DNA from: a virus
Lineage: Duplodnaviria > Heunggongvirae > Uroviricota > Caudoviricetes
Strand: one strand, 5' to 3'
Length of the DNA: 12,688 nt
Virus record (IMG/VR): IMGVR_UViG_2734482785_000014
Coordinates: 1 to 12,688 of that record
This document shows positions 1,654 to 2,268 of the stretch, in pieces. The notes beneath the pieces were generated by a model that saw only the letters and a program-made list of their open reading frames with translations, was not told the DNA's origin and did not search any database. Every line of letters begins with the position of its first letter. Position 1 is the stretch's first letter. The position numbers and the translations under genes were made by a program.

Positions 1654-2268
1654 ATGAGAAATCATACCACACACCCGCAAGGGCGGGACTCGCACAACCT
1701 GAATAAATATATCTGGCGTTTTATCGCCCTGAGCACGGCACAACCGCGTGTGATTACCATTGAGGCCACCAACGAACAGGAAGCCCGCCAGAAAAACCAG
1801 TTGATCGCCATTGCCAGCCAGGGCTATGATTTATCCGCACCAGCAAAATCTGGTGCCGGGATTGGCGTCCTGGTATTTAACGAAGCGCACAACACGCGCC
1901 CTGCGTGTTTTTTTGTGCCGGATAGTCACACCTTATCAATGGTGGGCTGTATGGGGGCGGAGCAATCCGCGCCGGGTTCTTCGTTAACCGGTTACGCCAA
2001 CCCTGTACAGTCCACCGCCAGCGAAATTGGCGTTTCCTGCGGTGGGTTTATTAAACCTAACGAAGAGGCTGCCAACATGGCTACTATCCCTACCCTTATA
2101 CATTCTCAAACTGCCTTTATCTGGCGCTTTATCATCTTTGGCGCGTCAGAGTCCCAAATCATCCACGTCACCGCCTGGACGGAACGCGAAGCGCGTAACC
2201 ATTGCCCGTCAGGTTGTGTCGCTGTATTCGCCGCCCGTATTCGTCAGGAGGTGCGCCATGTGCAATAA
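1654..2268 (+). CDS. Tandem-repeat protein, Icd/Ash-like (candidate host cell division inhibitor family), 204 aa
   Basis: ATG 1654 is preceded by GAGG (1645-1648). The protein has an internal duplication: YIWRFIALSTAQPRVITIEATNEQEARQKNQ and FIWRFIIFGASESQIIHVTAWTEREARNHCP. The family call is from memory of P4-like and PICI annotations and is unverified. The upstream part of the 955-2268 ORF is rejected. Confidence 0.55.
   Translation: MRNHTTHPQGRDSHNLNKYIWRFIALSTAQPRVITIEATNEQEARQKNQLIAIASQGYDLSAPAKSGAGIGVLVFNEAHNTRPACFFVPDSHTLSMVGCMGAEQSAPGSSLTGYANPVQSTASEIGVSCGGFIKPNEEAANMATIPTLIHSQTAFIWRFIIFGASESQIIHVTAWTEREARNHCPSGCVAVFAARIRQEVRHVQ

Follow-up and report, generated by a model that had tools for sequence, protein, structure and literature searches.

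A long reading frame crosses two RNA genes

We analyzed a 204-codon open reading frame (ORF) and its surroundings in a 12,688-nucleotide stretch of Caudoviricetes DNA (IMG/VR record IMGVR_UViG_2734482785_000014, positions 1 to 12,688), hereafter the window. The frame runs on the plus strand from an ATG at 1654 to a TAA at 2266-2268, with GAGG at 1645-1648 upstream of the start. Besides this locus, the window holds genes for a Bro-N domain protein, a YlcI/YnfO-family protein, a DUF4222 protein, a DUF927 primase, a single-stranded DNA-binding protein (SSB), PerC, capsid, protease, portal, connector, HNH, TerS and TerL, a gene set that we take to be that of a capsid-forming phage-inducible chromosomal island (PICI; cf. 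Alqurainy et al. 2023). An earlier reading of the letters and their ORFs alone (the sequence-only reading) had described the product as a tandem-repeat Icd/Ash-like protein, made first from an operator-controlled promoter, that might block host cell division or interact with a helper.

Much of the description stood. The internal IWRF...EAR duplication is real, with 12 of 32 positions identical and 20 of 32 positive between residues 14-45 and 150-181 (31.6 bits in a protein self-alignment). Because the two repeat copies share little DNA except TATCTGGCG(T/C)TTTATC, the duplication is an old one that is seen at the protein level. Similarity to the Icd and Ash families was also detectable, as NCBIfam NF033153 (phage_ICD_like) matches both repeats and Phage_ASH (PF10554) matches the middle of the protein at residues 59-150, or nucleotides 1828-2103, with 58.6 bits against a cut-off of 26. 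When the two units were scanned apart, unit 2 covered NF033153 model positions 1-48 (59.7 bits) and unit 1 positions 1-32 only (39.7 bits). The frame is, moreover, the first ORF behind a promoter-like site that bears operator-like repeats.

What the sequence-only reading overlooked is an internal promoter, a terminator, an antisense RNA and a nested start at 2077 with its own ribosome-binding site (RBS). Two Rfam RNA genes lie inside the reading frame and on the same strand, both above their gathering scores: an isrK/seqA/a1-b1 element at 1837..1913 (RF01394, 80 bits), which comprises two hairpins, and a C4/CI-type antisense RNA at 1935..2022 (RF01695, 75.3 bits; gathering score 45). A third model, RF03163 c4-a1b1 ('a1, b1 targets of C4'), scored 42.9 bits over 1824-1876, just below its gathering score. 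Scans of the plus strand placed the intrinsic terminator of isrK in a stem at 1891-1909 plus a T run, and a sigma-70-type promoter (TTGATC, 18-nucleotide spacer, TATGAT) at 1801..1830, whose predicted +1, at about 1837, coincides with the first isrK base. Neither hexamer varies across the 16 distinct cassettes, and this internal promoter is the putative counterpart of PLE in the satellite phage P4. The Phage_ASH match at 1828-2103 corresponds exactly to the isrK-to-C4-to-leader stretch. The 204-residue frame at 1654..2268 is thus laid out as an Eta-like read-through ORF, which begins upstream of the internal promoter, spans both RNA genes in frame and shares its stop with a nested gene.

Covariation of the antisense RNA with its targets

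Within C4, the single-stranded a' site (1994-2000) is complementary to a1 (1862-1868) in the isrK element and to a2 (2027-2033) downstream, and the loop site b' (1977-1987) is complementary to b1 (1877-1885) and b2 (2058-2067), all on the plus strand. The downstream targets together (2027..2068) are the counterpart of seqC, and b2 overlaps the Shine-Dalgarno sequence GAAGAGG (2062-2068) of the nested gene. Running RNAduplex on whole C4 against its whole flanks gave long, uninformative duplexes; the site pairings were defined by hand and then tested on aligned sequences of 16 distinct cassettes, taken from viral contigs and Escherichia coli genomes.

Our alignment revealed that the a1-a' and b1-b' positions are paired in 95.3% of cases; 12 of the 16 pairs show changes in both partners, and slid controls reach 29-51%. 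For a'-a2 and b'-b2 the corresponding figures are 98.5%, 10 of 17 pairs and 33-52%. The internal stems of isrK and C4 are 96.8% paired (slid controls 34-48%), and all five pairs of C4 hairpin 1 have changed on both sides. In 500 shuffles, no covariation score was as high as the observed one. L001, the nearest relative in E. coli with 87% identity across the region, differs from the window at all three a and all three b sites in matching fashion, with a' GTGGTAA and b' TCCTTTATC. Pairing of C4 with both target pairs is shown by this three-way covariation.

Five a alleles and six b alleles occur in eight combinations among the 16 cassettes. The window and L002 have the same a and a different b, and L012 and L025 have the same b and a different a. 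This independent assortment of a and b sites suggests recombination between the determinants and many immunity types among E. coli satellites, and the table of a and b alleles predicts which islands cross-repress each other. We also considered the IWRF repeat itself as an antisense target and rejected it, as the a and b sites are located elsewhere.

Two further observations concern C4. The sequence CCTGCGGTGGG at 2037-2047, downstream of C4, resembles the C4 5' strand AATGGTGGGC and, by analogy with structures A and B of the Gifsy-1 isrK-orf45 RNA, could form an alternative structure by pairing with the C4 3' strand. In one viral contig (L061) the C4 3' strand occurs twice on the minus strand, at 954-971 and 2520-2537, about 1.5 kb apart, and this double C4 may represent two tandem immunity modules.

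The nested Icd/Kil-like gene

The nested gene at 2077..2268 on the plus strand encodes 63 amino acids beginning MATIPTLIHSQTAFIWRF..., with its ATG in frame with that at 1654. Its stop overlaps the ATG at 2258 of the next gene, which is itself preceded by GGAGG; the product of that gene (2258-2494) had no Pfam or NCBIfam match. The 63-residue protein corresponds to unit 2 and to the full NF033153 profile, and the equivalent ORF has been annotated in L001 and L002 by the Prokaryotic Genome Annotation Pipeline (PGAP). When AlphaFold2 was run on the whole 204 residues with a 62-sequence alignment, residues 1-150 had a predicted local distance difference test (pLDDT) score below 50, and residues 151-198 reached about 70-77 and were predicted to form a beta-beta-alpha-beta unit. 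The same fold was predicted for the 63-residue protein alone (pLDDT 74). Structure prediction of the two repeats, proposed with the sequence-only reading, therefore yielded the beta-beta-alpha-beta fold for unit 2, and for unit 1 (pLDDT about 40) two low-confidence strands and no helix or third strand.

Judged by sequence, the nested protein is homologous to P1 Icd and to P4 Kil. P1 Icd is an FtsZ-binding protein that prevents division and the formation of the Z ring; its minimal core is residues 12-51, and it is much weaker when truncated to residues 12-50 (PMC11897509). We found that P1 Icd residues 12-51 match NF033153 positions 1-47, and that unit 2 and the P1-type sequence have about 46% identity across the C4-to-Icd alignment. 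By analogy, the Icd core at the C terminus is expected to bind FtsZ and to block division, and the Icd/Kil-like product is expected to be toxic when over-made, as its homology to P4 Kil would imply. The proposal that the protein is Icd-like and may block division can thus be kept for unit 2, which holds the whole equivalent of P1 Icd 12-51 and for which a division or killing phenotype would be a fair prediction; it probably does not extend to unit 1, which is partial.

The long frame is open in satellites

Variable columns in the 16-cassette alignment are spread over the three codon positions as 13/14/13 in isrK and 16/13/15 in C4. They fall as 7/7/20 in the nested gene, and because the spread is even between the junction and 2076, only the 63-residue part evolves like a protein. 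The Phage_ASH stretch does not behave as a conserved protein domain: it has no codon-position constraint and no confident fold (pLDDT below 50 throughout), and we therefore regard it as a frame over RNA genes rather than a folded domain. A tandem-repeat protein with two units as its functional entity is not borne out by these data, since its 'Ash' stretch coincides with two RNA genes and has no third-position bias.

The frame is nevertheless kept open. In 16 of 16 cassettes frame 0 is free of stops, compared with totals of 29 and 108 for the other two frames, and all indels in the cassette alignment are multiples of three. A mononucleotide shuffle gave P = 0.02 per sequence for a stop-free frame, and the frame was open in 20 of 20 related loci. 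We then scanned viral contigs independently of ORFs with a DNA pattern for the C4 3' strand, which returned 77 distinct regions; such DNA-pattern scans replaced an earlier scan by C4-to-Icd translation patterns, which was too specific and found 3 loci only. Loci were assigned to a satellite context where a primase or DUF4222 gene lies downstream, and to a phage/other context where an antirepressor gene or another context was found. Followed back across isrK and the promoter, the frame stays open at 26 of 26 satellite loci, compared with 17 of 48 phage/other loci (Fisher p = 8e-9). RNA conservation alone does not force an open frame, because phage-context loci with the same RNAs carry stops, the P1-like phage L003 among them. 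On this sequence comparison, selection of some kind appears to hold the frame open in satellites.

Long ORFs over the isrK/C4 region were also seen outside satellites. Both SfV orf37 (L033 832-1668, 278 aa) and the 'Ash family protein' of Hafnia phage yong2 (L032 988-1671, 227 aa) read through this region and overlap neighboring starts and stops. The read-through-ORF design is thus not confined to satellites, as SfV and Hafnia phage yong2 are true temperate phages. In L012 (IMGVR_UViG_2874945390_000001), an extra G in a GGGGG run before the stop lengthens the eta-like ORF by 26 codons, and the overlap with the next ATG is lost.

The N-terminal unit matches the start of a stand-alone Icd-like gene

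Positions 1580-1791 of the window are 98% identical to L004 2501-2712 and 93% identical to L005. At this position L004 and L005 carry one Icd-like gene of 67-68 aa (MRNHTTHPQGRDSHNLNKYIWRFIALSTAQPRVITIEATSEQEARQQSPAGCVMVFAARIRQG...) without RNA genes, and their neighbors are as in the window: integrase, HTH, Bro-N and YlcI/YnfO genes, then the Icd-like gene, DUF4222 and primase. Because of this near-identity, unit 1 (1654..1791, plus strand) is recognized as the first 46 codons of a stand-alone Icd-like gene, a partial domain that covers model positions 1-32 of 48. The likeness to L005 picks up again at window position 2205, so that 413 nucleotides (1792-2204) replace 5 nucleotides, a net gain of 136 codons in frame. 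From this comparison, either a cassette may have been inserted or the stand-alone gene may have arisen by deletion between the two repeats. In our preferred reading, the N-terminal unit is what is left of the 5' end of a resident stand-alone gene, with the cassette lying in frame within it, and alone it is probably inactive.

Other relatives fuse the cassette to shorter N-terminal pieces, which end in ...NKYIWRFLARK, ...SHNLNKAGMK or ...TAFVWRFLALNIGEK and are each joined to NQLIA. There are at least four different left junctions, all of them in frame and all preceded by a conserved RBS and ATG. Junction types C and D, to which most relatives belong, lack unit 1 yet retain the long frame, and the exact junction of the window (type A) was found in 4 of 5426 complete E. 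coli genomes.

The same reading frame is already open from 955, and 955-2268 forms an open stretch of 437 codons that runs antisense across two small minus-strand genes. We rejected a 437-aa protein, as its upstream part is antisense to these two genes and relatives carry stops 48-69 codons upstream of the junction. A 342-aa 'Icd-like' protein in RefSeq (P0001) and PGAP pseudogene calls stem from over-extension of this frame.

The outer promoter and its leader

Upstream of the long frame, a repeat search and a reading of the promoters defined an operator-bearing outer promoter region at 1476..1555. The plus-strand outer promoter was read by eye as TTGACA at 1517-1522, a 16-nucleotide spacer and TTTAAT at 1539-1544. 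It was not reported by the promoter scan because its -10 hexamer has no A at position 2. Three copies of TG(T/G)GCGCACA, at 1476-1485, 1523-1532 and 1546-1555, flank or overlap it and would act as operators. The scan did report a divergent minus-strand promoter at 1513..1485, which faces a YlcI/YnfO-family (DUF3950) gene of 65 aa at 1251-1448 on the minus strand, recognized by an NCBIfam match; its product could be the repressor of the outer promoter. Where the operator sequences of relatives are different, for example ATGGTAATTACC in L002, the downstream cassette is still the same.

The 5' untranslated region (UTR) contains a conserved hairpin at 1584..1617 on the plus strand, followed by an invariant UCUAACCACCAACGAUAG and the RBS. 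The fold of 1580-1656 has a free energy of -23.7 kcal/mol (z = -2.4), and the stem shows compensatory changes in 12 distinct relatives, some of which are islands without the RNA cassette. The hairpin had no Rfam match and could be a processing, antitermination or translation-control site. Downstream of C4, the most C-rich and G-poor stretch of the region lies at 2040..2177 on the plus strand (C/G 1.7-2.3); it is a candidate Rho-loading site, compatible with a Rho entry site analogous to P4 timm.

A P4-type switch and its rivals

We put at roughly three in four the probability that this locus of a capsid-forming, PICI-like E. coli satellite serves as a P4-type RNA immunity switch, with the long frame translated through the RNA genes on derepression. 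In the repressed state, the internal promoter at 1801-1830 would fire constitutively. Most of its transcripts would end at the isrK/seqA terminator, and those that read through would be processed to C4/CI RNA, whose a' and b' sites would pair with a1/b1 in the leader and with a2/b2. Pairing at a2/b2 would mask the RBS of the nested gene so that the Icd/Kil-like gene stays untranslated, and, going by P4, the untranslated RNA would be terminated ahead of the replication genes (DUF4222, DUF927 primase). Once the outer promoter is derepressed, ribosomes would begin at the ATG at 1654 and cross the internal promoter, the isrK terminator, C4 and a2/b2, so that the RNA structures do not form and Rho is kept off. 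Immunity would then not act on transcripts from the outer promoter, and translation would carry on to the overlapping start at 2258. For the central part of the frame, it would be the act of translation that matters and not the peptide sequence. We infer by analogy that translation of the long ORF prevents immunity-specific termination here as in P4, with the counts of open frames as indirect support.

Several points weigh against this interpretation. The outer promoter escaped the scan and has a weak -10 hexamer, and the model infers promoter activity, a start at about 1837, processing of C4, termination and translation of the long frame. P4 Eta is coupled to an upstream alpA-like gene, whereas the window ORF is served by an RBS of its own, downstream of an operator-controlled promoter. 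In P4 the outer promoter, PLL, is controlled differently, by Delta and Vis. The open frame could also partly reflect common ancestry of the satellite loci rather than independent selection. Finally, a study of Gifsy-1 gave the same RNA pair another role, that of activation by IsrK (PMC4825925).

In one rival reading, the 204-residue product would be a genuine two-unit Icd-like protein in which both repeats act together, for instance on FtsZ, with the Ash stretch as a linker that happens to overlap the RNA genes. Although the open frame has a conserved RBS and ATG, NF033153 matches both units, and 36 of the best 120 database homologues have two xW(R/K)F motifs, unit 1 has no third strand and reaches just 32 of 48 model positions, and P1 Icd activity suffers even at a shortening to 12-50 (PMC11897509). 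Unit 1 is missing from most relatives, and from P4 Eta as from junction types C and D, all of which retain the long frame; the exact junction occurs in so few complete E. coli genomes, and residues 1-150 are predicted without confidence, which together make a two-unit protein very unlikely. The alternative suggestion of a helper-interaction protein found no support. At the other extreme, the long ORF might never be translated, the functional parts being the two RNAs and the 63-aa gene, and the open frame a result of RNA conservation plus gene-caller habit. RNA constraints do explain the nucleotide conservation, there is no codon-position bias over 1793-2076, and PGAP often marks the upstream part as a pseudogene. 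We nonetheless hold this to be quite unlikely, given in-frame stops in 31 of 48 phage-context loci versus 0 of 26 satellites, the shuffle result, and a frame that is preserved by four left junction types and by all indels. In P4, nonsense mutations in eta cause termination, according to the summary of that work in PMC10111431.

Activation of the Gifsy-1 IsrK type would have the short isrK RNA, made from the internal promoter, act in trans on read-through transcripts to open an orf45-like frame at AUG 1940 or 1952 and so turn the downstream genes on instead of off. Both AUGs of Gifsy-1 orf45 (AUGGUGGGCUGUAUGGGG) are present here in the same frame, the isrK match is strong at 80 bits, and translation and coupling of orf45 have been shown experimentally (PMC4825925). 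Here, however, the frame runs on into an Icd/Kil gene with its own Shine-Dalgarno sequence inside b2, as in P1 and P4, and has no stop overlapping an antirepressor start, and the Gifsy-1 authors themselves note homology to P4 seqA and CI (PMC4825925). As a replacement for the P4-type switch we find IsrK activation highly improbable; such a circuit could coexist with it. A broader reading joins several claims, namely that promoter-seqA-CI-seqC-kil' is a portable immunity cassette placed repeatedly, and in frame each time, into the Icd-like gene that comes first in capsid-forming PICIs, which gives a two-tier switch, a/b incompatibility groups and an altered Icd. Taken jointly these are unlikely to all hold. 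If they did, the outer promoter would be under a protein repressor and the inner one under RNA immunity, a/b alleles, recombining freely, would set incompatibility groups among co-resident satellites, and type-A induction would also yield a one-and-a-half-unit Icd protein with altered activity.

Should the P4-type switch be the right reading, the P4 logic, in which antisense RNA immunity is bypassed by translating through the RNA genes, would be conserved in E. coli capsid-forming PICI-like islands, which otherwise rely on a protein repressor and operator module.

Database relatives and island context

The databases already contain an identical 204-aa product and the over-extended 342-aa version, both from E. 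coli. Our search returned 1685 database homologues, named 'ash family' or 'Icd-like'. About 1,700 'ash family' or 'host cell division inhibitor Icd-like' proteins of 115-356 aa are frames that cover two RNA genes together with a small nested gene (about 63 aa). Annotating such frames as ordinary proteins hides both the RNA regulators and the real small gene. Pfam matches of Icd-like proteins to DpnD-PcfM and DUF7710 (E about 0.2) were discarded as noise.

Elsewhere in the window, a terminator-like hairpin plus T run (ccccgcaccacgcaatgcggggtttttt) lies at 1-50, at the very start and ahead of the Bro-N domain gene (55-639). Between the capsid module and the SSB gene is a gene (5805-6098) whose product matches the PerC family of transcriptional activators at 120.8 bits.

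Comparison with known systems

In phage P4 (NC_001609), the minus strand has a 214-codon ORF (8168..8812) that includes Eta as published (197-199 aa, with starts at three adjacent ATGs, 8766-8758) and spans an isrK match at 8692-8615 and a C4 match at 8507-8420, the latter being the CI RNA. The ORF ends in Kil (MATTLTPSHPEFVFVF...; Kil begins MATTLTPSHPEF), and Eta comprises the whole Phage_ASH model followed by phage_ICD_like. We take a promoter-like site directly upstream of the isrK-like hairpin as PLE. As PMC10111431 summarizes the work of Forti et al. 1999, P4 has a constitutive promoter lying within eta, whose transcript is terminated via CI/seqA and processed to CI; Kil is a truncated Eta, and full Eta is made only from the upstream promoter, its translation preventing termination.

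The window shares with P4 the order of parts, a long ORF that starts upstream of the internal promoter and runs in frame through isrK/seqA and C4/CI, and its ending as an Icd-like, Kil-type protein of about 65 aa with its RBS inside the downstream target. The Phage_ASH plus phage_ICD_like architecture, the position upstream of a primase gene and the arrangement of a and b sites are also the same. We found the C4/CI RNA, the a1b1 element and its terminator behind a predicted internal promoter, a2/b2 on the RBS, and the nested Kil-like gene; a PLL-like outer promoter with coupling to an alpA/vis-like gene is absent. P4 Eta is coupled to the alpA-like orf88 by an overlapping TGA/ATG, whereas no co-oriented gene abuts the ATG at 1654 upstream, where the 5' UTR and the divergent YlcI/YnfO-family gene lie instead. 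P4 Eta also lacks an Icd-like unit at its N terminus, and about 107 nucleotides separate its seqA and CI elements, compared with 21 in the window. The a and b specificity sequences differ, and the element in the window encodes its own capsid, portal and terminase.

The immI region of P1/P7 (c4, icd, ant) likewise has a C4 with a' and b', targets on both sides and a b2 that covers the icd RBS. Its Icd starts MATIPT...FIWRF, the stop overlaps the next start and the FtsZ-binding Icd core is conserved. Only unit 2 spans the full-length Icd profile (1-48), unit 1 ending at position 32. A P1-like phage (L003) differs in having stops in the a1/b1 region, so that it has no eta-like read-through ORF, and its downstream gene is of the antirepressor/Roi type rather than a replication gene. 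In Gifsy-1 isrK-orf45-anrP, both RNA families are adjacent, and STnc1160, the C4 homologue, is crossed by a translated ORF that lies in the same frame and is coupled to the gene after it; there, a 45-codon ORF feeds an antirepressor-like gene, and IsrK, a structural homologue of P4 seqA in the authors' view, is described as a trans activator (PMC4825925). In the window the frame continues into the Icd-like gene instead.

The stand-alone Icd-like gene of L004 and L005 has an identical or near-identical 5' UTR, RBS and first 46 codons, a homologous stretch of 20 C-terminal codons and the same neighbors, and differs in having no internal promoter, isrK, C4 or second Icd 5' part. C4 and isrK matches in several Gram-negative PICIs have been reported (PMC10111431); like the eta mechanism they are already published, and the current understanding is not overturned. 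The present locus differs in that it keeps a half Icd unit N-terminally and has an outer promoter under operator control where P4 has PLL with its vis coupling.

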